DNA of 64,000 nucleotides from Eubacteriales bacterium (GCA_045544255.1 JAZPYP010000058.1:23520-87519); one strand, 5' to 3'; positions 13,590-39,400 are shown, counted from the stretch's first letter. Translations and numbers: made by a program. The notes: a model not told the origin generated them from the sequence alone.

Positions 13590-13959
13590 GGCTGTAAAAA
13601 TCGCAGTCAATGCGCTGGATAGCCGCAAAGGTCTTGATATTGAGATCTTGAAGGTAGAGGAAGTTACCTCTATGGCAGATTATTTTATCATCTGCTCCGG
13701 TACTTCTAATACCCAGATCCGTACCCTTGGAGATGAGGTTGAATTCAAGCTCAAGGAAGAGCTTGGTCTGGAGCCTCTCCATCGGGAAGGGTATCAAAGC
13801 GCAAGCTGGTATTTATTGGACTATGGGTTTATGATCGTTCATGTTTTCCATCAGGAAGCAAGAACCTTTTATAATCTGGGCCGCCTTTGGGCAGATGCCG
13901 AAAGGATCGATCCTGCAACATTGATTAACCAAGAGGGGGAAGAGAAAAATGAAATATGA
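13582..13959 (+). CDS. rsfS: Ribosome silencing factor RsfS
   Basis: [18 protein letters not shown] and FYNLGRLW motifs; context after nadD/yqeK. Confidence 0.92.
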
Positions 13960-16354
13960 TTATAGTGCCATTGAGAAAAAATGGCAAGCCTATTGGGATG
14001 AGCATGAGAGCTATAAGGTTGAGATCGACCATAATAAAGAAAAGTTCTTTGCCTTGGTAGAGTTCCCTTATCCTTCGGGTCAGGGCCTCCATGTTGGCCA
14101 TCCCAGAAGCTATACTGCGCTGGATATTGTAAGCCGCAAAAAGCGGATGGAAGGGTATAATGTCCTTTATCCCATGGGTTGGGATGCTTTCGGCCTGCCC
14201 ACCGAAAACTTTGCAATTAAAAATAAGATCCATCCCGCTATCGTTACCAAGAATAATATTGCCCGCTTTAAGAGCCAGCTGAAATCCTTGGGGCTTTCCT
14301 TCGATTGGTCCCGCGAGATCAATACCACCGATCCTGAATATTATAAGTGGACTCAATGGATCTTCCTGCAACTCTTCAAGAAGGGCCTTGCATATAAGAA
14401 AGAAATGAATGTTAATTGGTGCACCGGCTGTAAGGTGGTGCTTGCCAATGAAGAGGTGGTCAATGGTGTTTGCGAGCGTTGCGCAAGCCCCGTTGTCCAT
14501 AAGGTCAAGAGCCAATGGATGCTGAAGATCACCGAATATGCCGAAAAGCTGATCAATGGCCTTGATGATGTTGATTTCATCGACCGTGTTAAAACCCAGC
14601 AGCTCAACTGGATCGGCAAATCCACCGGCGCAACCGTTCGCTTCGGTACCACCGTTGGGGAGGAGCTGGAAGTTTATACCACTCGCCCCGATACCCTCTT
14701 CGGCGCTACTTATATGGTTATCGCCCCCGAGCATCCCATGATCGATGCCCATAAGGCCGAGATCAAGAATTATGAGGATGTGATCGCCTATCGGGAGGCT
14801 GCTGCCGCCAAGAGTGATTTCGAGCGTACCGAGCTGGTGAAGGAAAAGACCGGTGTGAAGCTTGATGGCATCTGCGGCATCAATCCCGTAAATGATAAGG
14901 AGATCCCCATCTTCGTATCCGACTATGTATTAATGTCGTATGGTACCGGCGCCATCATGGCCGTTCCCGCCCATGATACCCGCGATTATGAGTTTGCCAA
15001 AGTATTCGACCTGCCCATCGTTCAGGTGGTGGCAGGGGGCGATATCGAGAAGGAAGCCTTCACCGATGTTGCCACCGGCACTATGGTCAATAGCGGCTTC
15101 TTGAATGATCTTTCTGTGGAAGAAGCCAAGAAAGCCATCATCGAGCATCTCGCCAAGAGCGGCAAGGGCGAGCCTAAAACCAATTATAAGCTTCGCGATT
15201 GGGTATTCTCCCGCCAGCGCTATTGGGGTGAGCCGATTCCTATCGTTCATTGCCCCTGCTGCGGCCCTGTGGCTGTGCCTGAAGAGCAGTTGCCTCTCTT
15301 GCTCCCCGATGTAGATAGCTATGAGCCTACCGATAATGGCGAGAGCCCCTTGGCGGCTATGGATAGCTTTGTGAATACCACTTGCCCCAAGTGCGGCGCT
15401 GCTGCTAAGAGAGAAACCGATACCATGCCTCAGTGGGCAGGCTCTTCTTGGTATTTCCTCCGCTATATGGATCCCCATAATACCGAGGCTCTTGCCTCCG
15501 AGGAAGCCCTTTCCTATTGGGGCCCTGTGGATTGGTATAACGGCGGTATGGAGCATACTACCTTGCATCTCCTTTATAGCCGCTTCTGGCATAAGTTCCT
15601 CTATGATATCGGTGTGGTGAAAACTGCCGAGCCCTATGCCAAGCGCACCTCCCATGGTATGATCCTTGGCGAGGGCGGCGAAAAGATGAGCAAATCCCGC
15701 GGCAATGTGGTCAACCCCGACGATATCGTTCGGGATTACGGTGCCGATACCCTGCGCACCTATGAGATGTTTATCGGCGATTTCGAAAAGAGCGCCCCCT
15801 GGAATACCTCCAGTATTAAAGGCTGTAAGCGCTTCTTGGAAAAATCCTTTAATCTCTTAGAGATCCTCTGCGAAGGCGACGAAATTTCTAAAGAGCTGGA
15901 GCGCTCCTTCCATCTTACCATTAAGAAGGTGGGCGACGATATCGATCATCTCAAGATGAATACCGCTCTTGCTTCTTTGATGAGCCTGATCAATGAGATC
16001 ACCGCTAAAGGCTCTATCAATAAGAAGGAACTGGAGATCTTCATTAAGATGCTCTATCCCTTTGCCCCCCATCTTGGGGAGGAAATGTGGCAGCAGGCAG
16101 GCTTTGAGGGGGATATGACCTATGCTCCCTGGCCCGCCTACGATGAGAGCAAGACCAAAGCTTCCGAAGTGGAGATCGCTGTTCAGCTTCTCGGTAAGCT
16201 GAAGAGCCGCATTATGATCCCTGCCGAGGCAAGCGAGGACGAAGTGCTTTCCCTTGTCAAAGCCGATGAAAAGATGATCCCCCTCTTGGATGGCAAAAAT
16301 ATCGTAAAAGTCATCTATGTAAAGGGTAAACTCATCAACTTGATCGTAAAATAA
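13949..16354 (+). CDS. leuS: Leucine--tRNA ligase
   Basis: [13 protein letters not shown] (HIGH), GWDAFGLP, editing domain [23 protein letters not shown]. Confidence 0.98.
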
Positions 16355-16357
16355 ATT

Positions 16358-16390
16358 AAAAAAGAGTAGTCCATCGGACTGCTCTTTTTT
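16358..16390. terminator. Bidirectional intrinsic terminator after leuS
   Basis: AAAAAAGAGTAGTCC-ATC-GGACTGCTCTTTTTT. Confidence 0.85.
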
Positions 16391-16395
16391 GATAT

Positions 16396-16466
16396 AAAAA
16401 ACAGAGGTTGACCAAATCATCCTACCTCACGCAAAAAGCGCTTCAGAAATACAAGGGTCAACCTCT
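16396..16466 (-). ncRNA. Candidate ~65-70 nt hairpin small RNA (RNA-1)
   Basis: Starts 7 nt after a TATACT -10; perfect 11-bp closing stem AGAGGTTGACC/GGTCAACCTCT, inner stems with G-U pairs on the minus strand, then GTTTTTT. Confidence 0.5.
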
Positions 16467-16473
16467 AATAAAG

Positions 16474-16502
16474 AGTATAGCAAAATGCGTCAATTTTGTC
16501 AA
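16474..16502 (-). promoter_or_regulatory. sigmaA promoter of candidate RNA-1
   Basis: TTGACA-17-TATACT on the minus strand. Confidence 0.75.
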
Positions 16503-16714
16503 TAAAGAAAAAACGATACAACGCAAGTTAATGAGCGGGCGGCAAAATGTCCCGGACGTTGTTAACGTTGTATCGTTTCACATTGCTGAAACGGCGGGCG
16601 GAGCTCCTAGGCGCTCAGGCTTATCGCCAACAGACAATGATTGAAAGAGAAGCTGACGTCATGGGGGCAGAGCAAATTCAAAATGAATCCGGGCCGCCCC
16701 TGCTGTCAACTTCT
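16503..16714 (-). ncRNA. Candidate ~190-210 nt structured RNA (RNA-2), possibly 6S-like
   Basis: Starts 6 nt after a TATACT -10; 5' hairpin AGAAGTTGAC/GTCAGCTTCT, 3' perfect 13-bp stem AAACGATACAACG/CGTTGTATCGTTT plus T-rich tail; alternative 5'-3' long-range pairing. Confidence 0.55.
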
Positions 16715-16720
16715 AATATT

Positions 16721-16749
16721 AGTATATCCAAACTTTTTGAAAATGTCAA
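16721..16749 (-). promoter_or_regulatory. sigmaA promoter of candidate RNA-2
   Basis: TTGACA-17-TATACT on the minus strand. Confidence 0.75.
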
Positions 16750-16784
16750 TCCGAAAGAGCAGGGGATAGGAAAAATTGTTTAAA

Positions 16785-16854
16785 ACCATCAATCTGCGCC
16801 GATAGGCTTGCCCGAAGGCGTATATAGATACGCCGAGTGGCGCAGATTGGTGGT
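16785..16854. other. 70-nt hairpin element of unknown function (candidate RNA-3)
   Basis: ACCATCAATCTGCGCC/GGCGCAGATTGGTGGT 16-bp arms with one imperfect pair; inner GGCGTAT/ATACGCC stem. Confidence 0.4.
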
Positions 16855-16870
16855 AGCAAAGGGCATAAAA

Positions 16871-16899
16871 GAAAAGCGTTGCATTTTGCAACGCTTTTC
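16871..16899 (-). terminator. Probable terminator of the MlrC-like gene
   Basis: GAAAAGCGTTGCA-N3-TGCAACGCTTTTC followed by TTTTAT on the minus strand. Confidence 0.7.
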
Positions 16900-16986
16900 C
16901 ACCTTTTGTTTGAACAAGGATAAGTCTACGGAATATACTTTGTTCGTTTTGACCTTTGCGTTTTAAGCAATTTTAACATCCCCGTT

Positions 16987-18483
16987 TTACCAAAGTTTTG
17001 CTTTTTCGGGAGTATATCCTTCGGGAAGATCAAAGGGATAAAGGCCTTTGCGCAGGTTTTTCCATTCGAATCTCTTTAAGTTGGAAGCTCCTGCACCTGG
17101 AGTATCTGCCATATAAATCAAGGGGCTGATTTCGGCATAAGGCACCTTAAAGGAGGTATTTGCTTTCACAACGACCAGATCATAATGATAAGGCTCCATC
17201 CAGAATGCGCGGAAGAGGGTGGGGCTTCCGGAAAGCGCACCATGGTCGCAGAGCAAAACTTCAATGTTGCCAAAATGAACCACCGCAGAAAGACCGATAT
17301 AGCTGGAAGCATTTTTCATATAGCGGAAATGCCCATCGTGCAACGAGTGAACAACGCCCTCTGCTTTGAATGGACCGGGCATTCCGGGGGTAAAGCCTGC
17401 GCCGATAGAGAATTCTGCTTTGGCGCCAACACCCAGCTCATGAGCCTTCTTAGCGCCCTCGGGATCAACGATAAACATGCAAGTTCTTAATTTACTGCCC
17501 CGCTCCTGCAATCTCAAAGCAACTGCAGGGCTATCGCCAACGCACCCACCATTGGGGGAATCGGCGGAATCAGCCAAAATGACAGGTCTGCCGGTATCGT
17601 TTTTCTCTGCAATATCAATAATCTCATCAATGCTCATTAAATCGGGTTGGACATCATCCCGCAAAGCCAAAAGCCCCTCAGCAAGCTCATCGGCGCAAGC
17701 AAGCGTTATTTCTGCATCCTCGCCAATGGTAATGATGCGGCTTGCAATCTCTTGAATGTCCAACCAAGGCTGGGCGGCAAAGATGGTGAAATCGGTGATC
17801 TTGCCGTCTTTTACCATTTGGTGGGCTTTATCGGTCAGCTCTTTGAAAGGACCATCGATGGTGGTAAAACCGGCAGGGGGAATCAGGATATCCACCGTGG
17901 TGCTGGCAACCTTATATTCCTTGCCCTGCAGAGTTTCCATCATCAGCTTTGCGGCGCGGTAGCCTGCGCTGTAATGATCCACATGAGGGTAAGTATTATA
18001 TCCGCAGATAATATCAACGCTTCTCATGGTGCGATCGGTGATGTTGGCATGAAGATCATAGGAGGAAGCGATCACCGCATCAGGGGCAAGAGCGCGCAGA
18101 TGCTCCACCAAAACGCCGCAGGCATCATCGCAGGTCTCGGTGCAGGTGGCGCCATGGAGATGGCAGCAGATGCCATCCAATTCGCCTGCTTCTGCAACTG
18201 CTTTGGTAAGGGATTCCTTCAAATATTCCAAAACAGCATCATCTACCCGACCACCGGAAGGTGCATGCATATAAACAGAAGGAATCACTTCGCCGCCCAT
18301 CTCCTTAATGGCGGCAACAGAACCGCTAATGCAACCCATGGCGGCAGCCCGCGCATCCAAGCAGGCCTTGCCTTCAAAAACCTTGGCAGGATTGAAAAAT
18401 TCAAAAGAACATACAATAGGATTGAAAGTGTTGGTTTCTTCATGGAATTCCATGACTAAAACACGAGGTTTTTGCTTGCTCAT
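16987..18483 (-). CDS. M81 family metallopeptidase (MlrC-like)
   Basis: HEETNTF, LHGA, DLHAN, YPHVD and DSPNGG motifs; start reset to ATG 18483 after AAGGAG. Confidence 0.85.
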   Translation of the reverse strand: MSKQKPRVLVMEFHEETNTFNPIVCSFEFFNPAKVFEGKACLDARAAAMGCISGSVAAIKEMGGEVIPSVYMHAPSGGRVDDAVLEYLKESLTKAVAEAGELDGICCHLHGATCTETCDDACGVLVEHLRALAPDAVIASSYDLHANITDRTMRSVDIICGYNTYPHVDHYSAGYRAAKLMMETLQGKEYKVASTTVDILIPPAGFTTIDGPFKELTDKAHQMVKDGKITDFTIFAAQPWLDIQEIASRIITIGEDAEITLACADELAEGLLALRDDVQPDLMSIDEIIDIAEKNDTGRPVILADSADSPNGGCVGDSPAVALRLQERGSKLRTCMFIVDPEGAKKAHELGVGAKAEFSIGAGFTPGMPGPFKAEGVVHSLHDGHFRYMKNASSYIGLSAVVHFGNIEVLLCDHGALSGSPTLFRAFWMEPYHYDLVVVKANTSFKVPYAEISPLIYMADTPGAGASNLKRFEWKNLRKGLYPFDLPEGYTPEKAKLW

Positions 18484-18609
18484 GACTCGGATCTCCTTAT
18501 GATATAAAGCATTTTTTGTTTCTATCTTGGATTTTATCATAATGGATAGCGGAATGCAATAAGAATACCGAGTTTTTCTTGTATAAAACATAGAAAATAG
18601 TAAAGAAAA

Positions 18610-19023
18610 TTAAAGAAACCCTTGCATCTTTTCGAGGCTTTGTTCCCCTGCATGCTTCAGATCCTTGGCAAGAGCAAGCACCAGCGGGTCATCTCCCTTA
18701 TAATTTTGAACCATTTTTTTACTTTTGGCGAGATTGCCGTTCTCCTGCTTGATTATTCCGCTCGCAAGATCAGAGGCGGAGCGGCATCCGCCGATGGAAA
18801 GATGGCTATTGATCCGCGCGGTTAACTTTGCGCTTTTGGGTGGAATTCCGCGGGCAATTAAATAATTGGCAGAGGTGCCGTAGATATCCTGATATTTTCG
18901 GTATTGCCTGTGGAGGGCTTGCCGAAGGGCGGGATCATTGGTATTTCGAAGCGCGTTTTCAGCGTGGAGCTTTCCAAGCTCTGCCGATTGATGAATTTGC
19001 TGGAGCAGTTTAATATCTTGCAT
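18610..19023 (-). CDS. Small helical hypothetical protein of a Clostridia-conserved (ferritin-like) type
   Basis: GAGGTG RBS; LLQQIHQSAELG..ALHRQYRKY..LKHAGEQSLEKMQGFL pattern recalled from clostridial hypothetical proteins. Confidence 0.55.
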   Translation of the reverse strand: MQDIKLLQQIHQSAELGKLHAENALRNTNDPALRQALHRQYRKYQDIYGTSANYLIARGIPPKSAKLTARINSHLSIGGCRSASDLASGIIKQENGNLAKSKKMVQNYKGDDPLVLALAKDLKHAGEQSLEKMQGFL

Positions 19024-19125
19024 ATAGATCACCTCATTATGAGTATTTCCTGATTTTCTCTTTTTATTTCAGAAAATGCTTGACATTTGCAGGTGTTTTG
19101 TGCTAATATATTTGAGCAAATTCAT

Positions 19126-19448: not shown

Positions 19449-20387
19449 ATGGAAGAGGTGCTGGATCAATTCTATGCGCTTTTTGAAAATGCCGCTCTCG
19501 ATGCGGCTGCCAATTATCAGGCGGCGGAAGGATCGGTGGATCTTAAGGGTATAATAAAGGAACAGGCAAAGGGTGTGGCTAACGATAATTATTCTCGGAG
19601 GATAAATGATTACGATATAGCGCCAATTGTGTATACGATTAGGTACGAGAAACCACAAAGAGGGCATGACCTTATATCGCTTGAAAAAATGCCGCACATA
19701 TATAGGAAAATGTTCGATTTAAGTGGTAAGGTTCATGTGAGCCATGCGCACTTATACTGTTGTATGGTATCAAAAGAAACTGCAATAAAAGAAGGGCGTT
19801 ATCAATCGGAAAATAGCGATGATTATCATGAATTACCAGAAGAAAAACTTATAAACGCAATTGAGCAAATACAGGATCCTTTGGTTATAATGGAATCGTT
19901 AAAAAATTACGAAACTCTACGATTGGTTGCTCTTTTGGAGGAAAAAGGCCATGGCGAAATTCCCTTAATTGCTGTTATGACTTTATATGACGAAAAAGTG
20001 GCGTTTGGCGAAAGTAGAGGGCGAAATCATGTGCTTCTTACGATATATGAAAAAAACAGTCTTTCTGATTACATCGAAAAGACTAGAAATGAAAGTCGTA
20101 TTCTGCATATAAAAAAAGGAGTTTCCGAAGATGCATTAGCCGACTTCCAATTAGTCGGGAACGTATCTAAAGAAACTCTCAACAATAATATACGCAATTT
20201 TAATAAAAAAGTCAAGGCTTTCAAAGAAAAATATAAAATCAACTATGAAAGGAAGCATTCTCACAATATCGCCCCCGGTCGCAATGATGTGGTGGCAGAG
20301 TTGCTCCGCCTAAAATATATAAAGAAAATTGCGAGGAATAAAAAAGATTGGATTTCCAAAAGGAAATCCAATCTTTTTTTATCTTAA
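19449..20387 (+). CDS. AT-rich ORF with a MuF-C/PBECR-like nuclease domain (fragment of a phage/ICE polyvalent protein)
   Basis: YHELPEEKLINAIEQIQDPLVIMES..LVALLE..PLIAV..NHVLLTIYEK pattern; about 30% GC in a sampled line; codon usage unlike neighbours. Confidence 0.55.
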   Translation: MEEVLDQFYALFENAALDAAANYQAAEGSVDLKGIIKEQAKGVANDNYSRRINDYDIAPIVYTIRYEKPQRGHDLISLEKMPHIYRKMFDLSGKVHVSHAHLYCCMVSKETAIKEGRYQSENSDDYHELPEEKLINAIEQIQDPLVIMESLKNYETLRLVALLEEKGHGEIPLIAVMTLYDEKVAFGESRGRNHVLLTIYEKNSLSDYIEKTRNESRILHIKKGVSEDALADFQLVGNVSKETLNNNIRNFNKKVKAFKEKYKINYERKHSHNIAPGRNDVVAELLRLKYIKKIARNKKDWISKRKSNLFLS

Positions 20388-23330: not shown

Positions 23331-23436
23331 AAAAGGGCAGTGAAGAAAAGATTTCCTCACTGCCCAGACGGTCGGCTTTACTCATTTTCTCGGTTACACG
23401 ATGGTTCTTTCCATCTTACTTCCGTCAGAAACCGAA
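23331..23436 (-). promoter_or_regulatory. ZMP/ZTP (pfl motif) riboswitch with terminator expression platform
   Basis: Minus strand TCGGTTTCTGACGGAAG..AACCGA..GCCGACCGTCTGGGCA; the 3' GGGCAG overlaps terminator GGGCAGTGAG/TTCACTGCCC-TTTT; upstream promoter TTGACT-17-TATCCT (23484-23456). Confidence 0.9.
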
Positions 23437-23568
23437 AAAATCTTTGTTCACCTAAAGGATACCATGAAGATTAAAAAAAGTCAATCAATTTTTGGAAGAT
23501 ATCCGGTTGAAAAGTGCCGAAAATTATGGTACTATATCCATAATATATTGTTTAAAAGGATGAAACCT

Positions 23569-39220: not shown

Positions 39221-39400
39221 AGTTGATCCTTGCAGGAAGACTGTAAGGGGATAGAACTTTGGAGAATCCCATTTAATTGGGTGCCGAAGGGGCAAGCGTT
39301 TTTGCGCGAAACTCTCAGGCAAAAGGACAAAGATTTTTAAAAAAGAATTCTTTTGATTTTTGCAGATCGTTTGTGCAATAGCGCGGGCGGTCTGTTTTAT
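39221..39400 (+). promoter_or_regulatory. Glycine riboswitch (single aptamer) with downstream terminator-like hairpin
   Basis: CTTTGGAGA..CCGAAGGGGCAA..AAACTCTCAGGCAAAAGGACAAAG (39257-39332); hairpin CAGATCG..CGGTCTG plus T-run before the symporter. Confidence 0.88.

Follow-up and report, generated by a model that had tools for sequence, protein, structure and literature searches.

The window analysed here is a stretch of 64,000 nucleotides (contig C58:23520-87519) from the 2.17 Mb, 85-contig genome (G000; 46.6% G+C) of a member of an uncultured genus of gut Clostridia. Within it, a spacer of 632 nt separates two convergent genes whose identities were confirmed by Pfam, leuS and the M81/MlrC peptidase gene mlrC. 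The spacer contains two promoters, P1 and P2, and four hairpins, hpA, hpB and hpC behind P1 and hpD behind P2. With two terminators, the whole array takes up ~355 nt, and no spacer in it exceeds 8 nt (Table 1). The original prediction, that two minus-strand promoters with identical hexamers and spacing lie here, holds at the exact positions proposed: each matches the consensus at 11 of 12 positions, with a 17-nt spacer. Over both strands of the genome (4.3 Mb), TTGACA-17-TATACT has just 18 exact matches; a pair 247 nt apart on one strand is therefore not a chance occurrence. The P1 block is conserved in homologues of the cassette and, when read on the plus strand, supplies the codons S-I-S-K-L-F-E-N-V-N of a relic open reading frame.

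Table 1. Positions of the features discussed, in window coordinates unless a contig or protein residues are indicated
Feature	Position	Strand	Remarks
leuS	13949-16354	+	
hpD with T-run	16396-16466	-	hairpin 16466-16403; T6 16401-16396; -28.7 kcal/mol, z -5.7
Promoter P2	16474-16502	-	-35 TTGACA 16502-16497; -10 TATACT 16479-16474; TG extension
hpC with T-run	16503-16578	-	hairpin 16578-16511; T-run closes the P1 transcript and abuts the -35 box of P2
hpB	16581-16639	-	second P1 hairpin
hpA	16648-16714	-	first P1 hairpin; -35.0 kcal/mol, z -5.3; internal motif CCAUGACGUC conserved
Polyvalent-gene relic	16661-16783	+	40 codons (MGAEQIQNESGPPLLSTSNISISKLFENVNPKE...); first ~33 codons match the relatives' polyvalent protein
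Promoter P1	16721-16749	-	-35 TTGACA 16749-16744; 17-nt spacer; -10 TATACT 16726-16721
Inverted-repeat element, 222 nt	16762-16983		terminal inverted repeats 16983-16960 and 16786-16762
mlrC	16987-18591	-	
Solitary MuF_C (PBECR-type) gene	19449-20387	+	Pfam MuF_C E = 3e-10, residues 121-222
Module in MuF_C gene	20111-20215	-	-35 TTGACT 20215-20210; -10 TATATT 20192-20187; 17-nt spacer
RNA part of the same module	20111-20178	-	hairpin 20178-20119 (60 nt, z -4.35); T7 20117-20111
Canonical repeat copies in G000, examples	C3:7950-8300; C55:10100-10400; C16:35800-36000		
Module in host frame L062	residues 1294-1323		PBECR3 at residues 1159-1285
Module in host frame L024	residues 480-513		MuF_C at residues 377-480
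Module in host frame L049	residues 500-537		LPD3 at residues 396-495

On the minus strand, the 210 nt between 16714 and 16505 fold as three separate hairpins, hpA, hpB and hpC. A T-tract had been described as ending one RNA directly at the -35 box of the next; the tract exists, but it terminates hpC, the third hairpin of the P1 unit, and not hpA. Because a good T-run is found only after hpC, that of hpA being degenerate (CTCTTTCAATC), the P1 product is probably an RNA of ~210 nt with the three hairpins hpA-hpB-hpC, and the predicted product of P2 is an RNA of ~70 nt containing hpD. Each cassette would be a self-contained small-RNA gene, with a near-consensus sigma-A promoter, a start 6-7 nt past the -10 box, and an RNA that folds into a hairpin of ~60-70 nt and terminates at a U-run. 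This agrees with the proposal that strong promoters are dedicated here to short structured minus-strand RNAs, the near-consensus boxes and the stable hairpins being predicted from sequence.

The pairing of a 10-mer of the form AGA(A/G)GTTGAC at the start of the hairpin with its complement downstream, also proposed originally, was confirmed both in hpA, where AGAAGTTGAC (16714-16705) pairs with GTCAGCTTCT (16657-16648), and in hpD, where AGAGGTTGAC (16466-16457) pairs with GTCAACCTCT (16412-16403). A 14-nt direct repeat is all that the hairpins have in common; the closing stem beginning 5' AGARG, to which the predicted shared terminal stem corresponds, recurs throughout the wider family.

The expectation that the cassettes belong to no recognised RNA family was borne out by Rfam 15. 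A search of positions 16300-17050 at E ≤ 10 gave nothing relevant (best score 25.9 bits against a gathering score of 60), and a search of the whole window at gathering thresholds detected, besides two tRNAs, only a class A RNase P RNA (1467-1811), a ZTP riboswitch (23355-23442) and a glycine riboswitch (39249-39340). Several established classes were considered individually. A 6S-like rod spanning 16503-16714 is ruled out by the presence of three independent hairpins with separate homologues. For a type I toxin-antitoxin system, a small (<60 aa) hydrophobic toxin frame opposite the cassettes was sought and none was found: the plus-strand frames beneath them are of 78, 78 and 42 aa and have no Pfam matches, and the frame of interest is a hydrophilic relic of a polyvalent-protein linker. 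A type III (ToxIN-like) system was rejected, as the 14-nt direct repeat is the only repetition and there are no tandem repeats of one unit, and as the RNA in its home context, described below, is antisense to the gene encoding the RNase domain rather than upstream of it and co-oriented. A single-strand-DNA promoter or single-strand origin was likewise rejected, the -35 and -10 boxes lying outside the hairpin and the pairing being strand-biased at the RNA level.

A third hairpin of ~70 nt, lying upstream of P1 and originally taken for a cassette of similar build, exists (16852-16785, z = -5.6), but it is the core of a dispersed repeat and has no cassette-type promoter. Together with the mlrC terminator hairpin (16871-16899) it is included in the 222-nt inverted-repeat element. 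In BLAST searches of the spacer against the genome, the stretch around 16866-16762 was found in more than 25 copies at 70-84% identity, which rules out a paralogous cassette; the cassettes themselves have no further copies. Two other genomic copies share both ends of the 222-nt element, which with its many copies and terminal inverted repeats has the features of a dispersed, MITE-like repeat, and Rfam has no match for the window copy. Canonical copies are ~260 nt long and flanked by TTTTTACAGCCCC, with at least 17 near-identical ones, many at contig ends. In them, a good ribosome-binding site comes after a three-way-junction fold and precedes a hydrophobic frame of 26 codons (MGENIENSIFSIIILGFLQFLCKKAL), which a 12-nt palindrome overlaps; this overlap, and the absence of the frame from the window copy, led to its being set aside as a candidate type I toxin. 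The ~260-nt repeat may be a MITE-like element or, alternatively, a small-peptide locus present in many copies. Its inner hairpin, CTCGGCGTATC..ATACGCCTTCGGG, is also found in five tandem ~110-nt units after the end of an FtsK-like gene elsewhere in the genome (G000:C72:107740-108270), and the inverted-repeat element of the window contains a promoter-like sequence, TTGAAC-18-TATACT (9/12), at 16910-16939 on the plus strand, directed towards the 3' end of mlrC.

Homologues of the individual hairpins were sought at the DNA level in 40 relatives. The hpA cassette, promoter and hairpin together, is present in six other genomes of the genus, and a covariance model built on it (R1) identified further members in two other genera; hpA homologues are known from seven other genomes in three genera. 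On the promoter strand the members score 79-89 bits with R1 (84.5 bits for hpA of the window), and on the opposite strand 25-28 bits. A homologue of hpD is found in G013, in a copy without a T-run, and homologues of hpB or hpC occur in G024, G007, G006 and G004, most of them with their own promoter of the same kind; those of hpB in G007 and G024 retain theirs. The notion of a local cluster of paralogous chromosomal small RNAs has therefore to be abandoned, because every hairpin type has its own homologues elsewhere, several of them antisense within genes for polyvalent proteins. The regions downstream of leuS in 25 genomes of the genus contain modules only in the window genome and in G017.

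Conservation and covariation in relatives, which had been set out as a check, are observed for hpA, hpB and hpC alike. Compensatory changes affect 13 of the 25 pairs in the alignment of eight hpA sequences, 11 of 21 for hpC (five sequences) and 8 of 25 for hpB (three sequences), these alignments being small (3-8 sequences) and their members phylogenetically related. For hpA, 91% of the alignment cells are paired, compared with 28-45% when the partners are slid, and none of 500 shuffles was as good. The covarying positions in the closing stem of hpA change the amino acids encoded there (in G001, for instance, A to V and, with it, S to P), and the constraint on the stem is consequently one of pairing and not of peptide sequence.

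The genomic context of the homologues offers a view of the origin of the cassettes. In most relatives the strand opposite the hpA cassette is open, with a frame of 183 to more than 560 aa, and for the homologues of hpD and hpC the corresponding frames are of 482 to more than 1000 aa: the hpD homologue (G013:C93) is antisense within a 482-aa frame, and an hpC homologue (G006:C2) is intragenic and placed after a MuF_C domain. A conserved 3' motif, CCATGACGTC, translates on the opposite strand as GACGTCATGG, and the promoter itself, as AGT ATA TCC ... GAA AAT GTC AA, is read there as S-I-S ... E-N-V-N. The coding strand thus specifies a linker that begins with KK, continues for a variable ~20 aa and ends with S-I-S-x-x-x-E-N-V-N, while the other strand carries the RNA gene. 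As the promoter block is also a conserved peptide motif, part of the intragenic conservation could be at the protein level, for example in a processing site.

When GTDB genomes were scanned for TTGACATT-N9-10-TNGGATATACT, the promoter block, 120 loci were returned, a sample chosen by the promoter pattern itself. At 37 of these a hairpin and a T-run directly follow the promoter, and approximately 30 of the 37 units are antisense in frames that run without a stop for 500 to over 2600 aa; the genomes concerned are those of Oscillospiraceae, Acutalibacteraceae, Lachnospiraceae and other gut metagenome-assembled genomes. Pfam searches detected LPD3, LPD38 and PBECR3 in the host frames, which identifies them as large polyvalent proteins. 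In 14 of 18 cases the 240 aa before the module contain PBECR3 (6), LPD3 (5) or MuF_C (3), and in L062, L024 and L049 the domain ends 5-10 residues ahead of it (Table 1). A single polyvalent gene can hold several modules, spaced more than 1 kb apart in the giant genes. In 28 of 33 distinct hairpins the promoter strand gives the more stable fold (mean difference -5.5 kcal/mol; Wilcoxon p = 4e-6), a comparison mildly biased by the selection of hairpins through folding of that strand, and G-U pairs number 91 on the promoter strand against 36 on the opposite one. A generic finder applied to 83 kb of giant frames recovered 17 antisense modules, three of which had not been seeded by the search pattern, and no sense modules.

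Among the domains that precede the modules, those of the PBECR group, which includes MuF-C, have been described by Iyer et al. (2017, PMC5512222) as predicted RNase or RNA-binding domains of proteins that phages and conjugative elements inject. That paper covers proteins only, and the words 'antisense', 'noncoding' and 'immunity protein' are absent from it; no antisense or small RNA tied to polyvalent, PBECR or MuF proteins was found in the literature. The cassette family is undescribed, with no Rfam match and no report found in the literature. The comparison of genomic contexts shows that it normally resides antisense in the giant polyvalent-protein genes that phages and conjugative elements carry in gut Clostridia, where it fills the linker directly behind a PBECR3, MuF_C or LPD3 domain.

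The window itself contains a second example. We define an antisense module as a near-consensus pair of -35 and -10 boxes followed, after a gap of 4-13 nt, by a single hairpin of 35-90 nt and a T-run. All of these features are found both in P2/hpD and in a module on the minus strand of a solitary MuF_C gene, just past the MuF_C domain and 3.4 kb from the leuS-mlrC cassettes; P1/hpA shares them except for the T-run, which is present only after hpC. A genome-wide module finder returned 12 matches only, and in few of them, P2/hpD and the MuF_C module included, does a single clean hairpin follow a promoter close to the consensus. The MuF_C gene is AT-rich, lies directly after tRNA-Gly(TCC) and tRNA-Arg(TCT), and its stop codon overlaps a convergent radical-SAM activase gene. 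Three homologues exist in the genus, all three with an antisense module at the same place, and because two of them are parts of frames of 2796 and 3137 aa, the window gene is probably a fragment of an integrated element in which the antisense module was retained. As a class, the modules show compensatory changes and favour pairing of the promoter strand; a location within a polyvalent-protein frame, after PBECR3, MuF_C or LPD3, is seen for the module at 20215-20111 and for the hpA, hpC and hpD homologues of relatives, and the leuS-mlrC cassettes themselves retain the relic of ~33 codons and no domain. Between mlrC and the MuF_C gene, a 140-aa frame without a Pfam match (18610-19032, minus strand) is conserved beside the same tRNA pair in G017.

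The statement that no credible protein gene lies under the promoters is correct for the present state of the locus and incomplete in that a 40-codon relic of a polyvalent-protein gene remains. When the polyvalent proteins of relatives were compared with the genome by tblastn, the only match was at 16649-16780 of the window, with 50-52% identity, and this homology stops where the inverted-repeat element begins. A protein gene is missing, then, because the partner gene was lost. In the closest relative, G017, whose leuS is 87% identical at the DNA level, a polyvalent fragment of 319 aa closely follows the same tRNA pair and still encloses the hpA cassette; the promoter and closing stem of that cassette are 95% identical to those of the window and the interior of the hairpin is unalignable. 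The comparison shows the leuS-mlrC cassettes to be orphans, whose protein partner is gone but for ~33 codons.

Trimmed orphans with near-consensus promoters also occur in G015, G024, G006, G007, G004 and G188. Those of G015 and G024 occupy the same site after a tRNA cluster with different hairpin types, the former starting at the tRNA terminator and the latter separated from it by ~400 nt of other sequence; the orphans of G006 (two in tandem), G007, G004 and G188 lie in intergenic DNA. The intervening sequence in G024 (L014, G024:C96, 990-1420) contains several short hairpins in a row, all with ATGATG or CATCAT at their end, and then a short frame ending in ...ETGYWLDLLLKTNYIDEQLYKKLSSKCTSLRVMLIASCRTAKENL that is similar to four-helix-bundle proteins of the 23S rRNA IVS type. 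For hpA-hpD, no complementary target was found in the window genome. Phage and plasmid collections yielded no true homologues of the window cassettes, IMG/VR gave chance matches only, and JGI metagenomes gave none or chance matches.

On the basis of these data we consider it probable, at roughly 60%, that the cassettes are small-RNA genes that came from polyvalent-protein genes, in which they would act as cis-antisense regulators, and that they are orphaned at the present locus. In the home context such an RNA would be perfectly complementary to the host mRNA and is expected to repress it in cis through duplex formation followed by cleavage or a block of translation, the presumed effect being that an RNase-bearing gene is kept quiet in the carrier cell, in a manner similar to type I antitoxin RNAs and IS10 RNA-OUT. 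Orphans might, more speculatively, be retained because related elements that enter the cell carry a matching module with which the RNAs pair or which they otherwise neutralise; that they are young relics is just as possible. Their compact arrangement and undamaged promoters speak for the retention of the orphans, and the lack of a target in the genome and the decayed terminator of hpA argue that they are relics. An extension in which chromosomes or rival elements collect the stripped RNA genes as compact arrays near integration hotspots, and in which the RNAs silence or neutralise incoming PBECR-type RNase modules, strikes us as decidedly unlikely. Such arrays would amount to a heritable, protein-independent RNA immunity, loosely comparable to a piRNA cluster or to a Cas-less spacer array, and the hypervariable hairpin interiors would then be the outcome of an arms race.

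The cassettes could instead be neutral relics, the last fragments of polyvalent genes decayed from one or more integrated elements, perhaps still transcribed but of no benefit to the cell. This is a serious, if rather unlikely, explanation: the partner is reduced to ~33 codons, the nearby tRNA integration hotspot carries another polyvalent fragment in the MuF_C gene, the hpA terminator has decayed, a repeat element is inserted beside P1, hpB and hpC of the window lack promoters of their own, unlike those of G007 and G006, and the genome offers no complementary target. Decay, however, would not be expected to strip all coding DNA between the modules and yet spare four stable hairpins, two terminators and two promoters that match the consensus at 11 of 12 positions, leaving spacers of at most 8 nt where the modules of giant genes are more than 1 kb apart; moreover, similarly trimmed orphans with near-consensus promoters are found in at least six other genomes.

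It is also conceivable, but improbable, that the hairpin functions as an RNA antidote that binds and inhibits the adjacent PBECR-type RNase domain, or serves as its pseudo-substrate, in analogy to type III antitoxins; orphan arrays would then shield the cell from injected RNase domains. The strict association of the module with the C-terminal border of PBECR3, MuF_C or LPD3 and the prediction of PBECR domains as RNases or RNA binders (PMC5512222) are compatible with such a role, as is the resemblance of multi-hairpin transcripts to ToxI arrays. The hpA internal-loop motif CCAUGACGUC, furthermore, is invariant amid covarying stems and persists, free of coding constraint, in two of the three hpA orphans. 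Against this, the hairpin interiors are hypervariable even among close relatives with 95% identical flanks, and beyond the closing stem no motif is common to the hairpin types. Hypervariable interiors suit cis-antisense action, in which the RNA is complementary automatically, better than a conserved protein-binding fold. In a further reading the cassette is no RNA gene at all and acts as DNA, its conserved ~30-nt 'promoter' and its palindromes serving either as recombination joints for domain shuffling or as single-stranded hairpins in conjugative transfer. Polyvalent genes are highly mosaic (PMC5512222), one promoter block is joined to unrelated hairpins, and hairpin interiors are swapped among close relatives; nevertheless, the strong bias of G-U pairs and folding energy to the promoter strand, the occurrence of the T-run after the hairpin only in the direction of the promoter, and the position of the -35 and -10 boxes outside the hairpin, so that no single-strand promoter is formed, make a DNA-level element exceedingly improbable.

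If the cis-antisense reading is correct, a whole class of small-RNA genes in the giant genes of phages and conjugative elements has been missed because they are written antisense, and in frame, within genes annotated as pure coding sequence. The predicted effector domains PBECR, MuF_C and LPD3 would gain a dedicated RNA partner, and the long-standing question of how carriers tolerate RNase-bearing cargo proteins would become directly testable. Stand-alone arrays, of which that of the window is a clear example in an uncultured lineage of gut Clostridia, would constitute a legible archive of earlier contacts with such elements and might also serve as a defence based on RNA. Programs that predict small RNAs, and annotators, should search long reading frames for units of promoter, hairpin and terminator.

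IS10 RNA-OUT and lambda OOP RNA are short, single-hairpin, cis-antisense RNAs of mobile elements, transcribed from a strong promoter that opposes a protein gene, either from within it or from its edge. The units described here resemble them in consisting of a stem-loop of ~70 nt with its own terminator, fully complementary to the host mRNA and borne by a mobile element. They differ in lying in frame, in an inter-domain linker deep within a giant gene, instead of at its 5' end or ribosome-binding site, in their tie to PBECR3, MuF_C and LPD3, in the possibility of several per gene, and in the additional occurrence of stand-alone arrays without a target. The txpA/RatA and bsrG/SR4 pairs of B. subtilis are type I toxin-antitoxin systems with a 3'-overlapping antisense RNA, and share with the modules a convergent antisense RNA over the region just after the toxic module and a presumed silencing in the carrier. 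In contrast to these pairs, the partner here exceeds 100 aa and is a predicted RNase domain within a polyvalent protein, not a small membrane peptide, and no small hydrophobic frame lies opposite the cassettes. A tentative parallel is EcOnc36, a phage-encoded candidate small RNA of an Stx2 prophage detected by Hfq-CRAC, whose target is listed as unknown (PMC7873438) and which has no sequence relation to the RNAs of the window. On the protein side, the host genes of the modules correspond to the polyvalent proteins described by Iyer et al. (2017, PMC5512222), carrying as they do LPD3, LPD38, PBECR3 and MuF_C domains.
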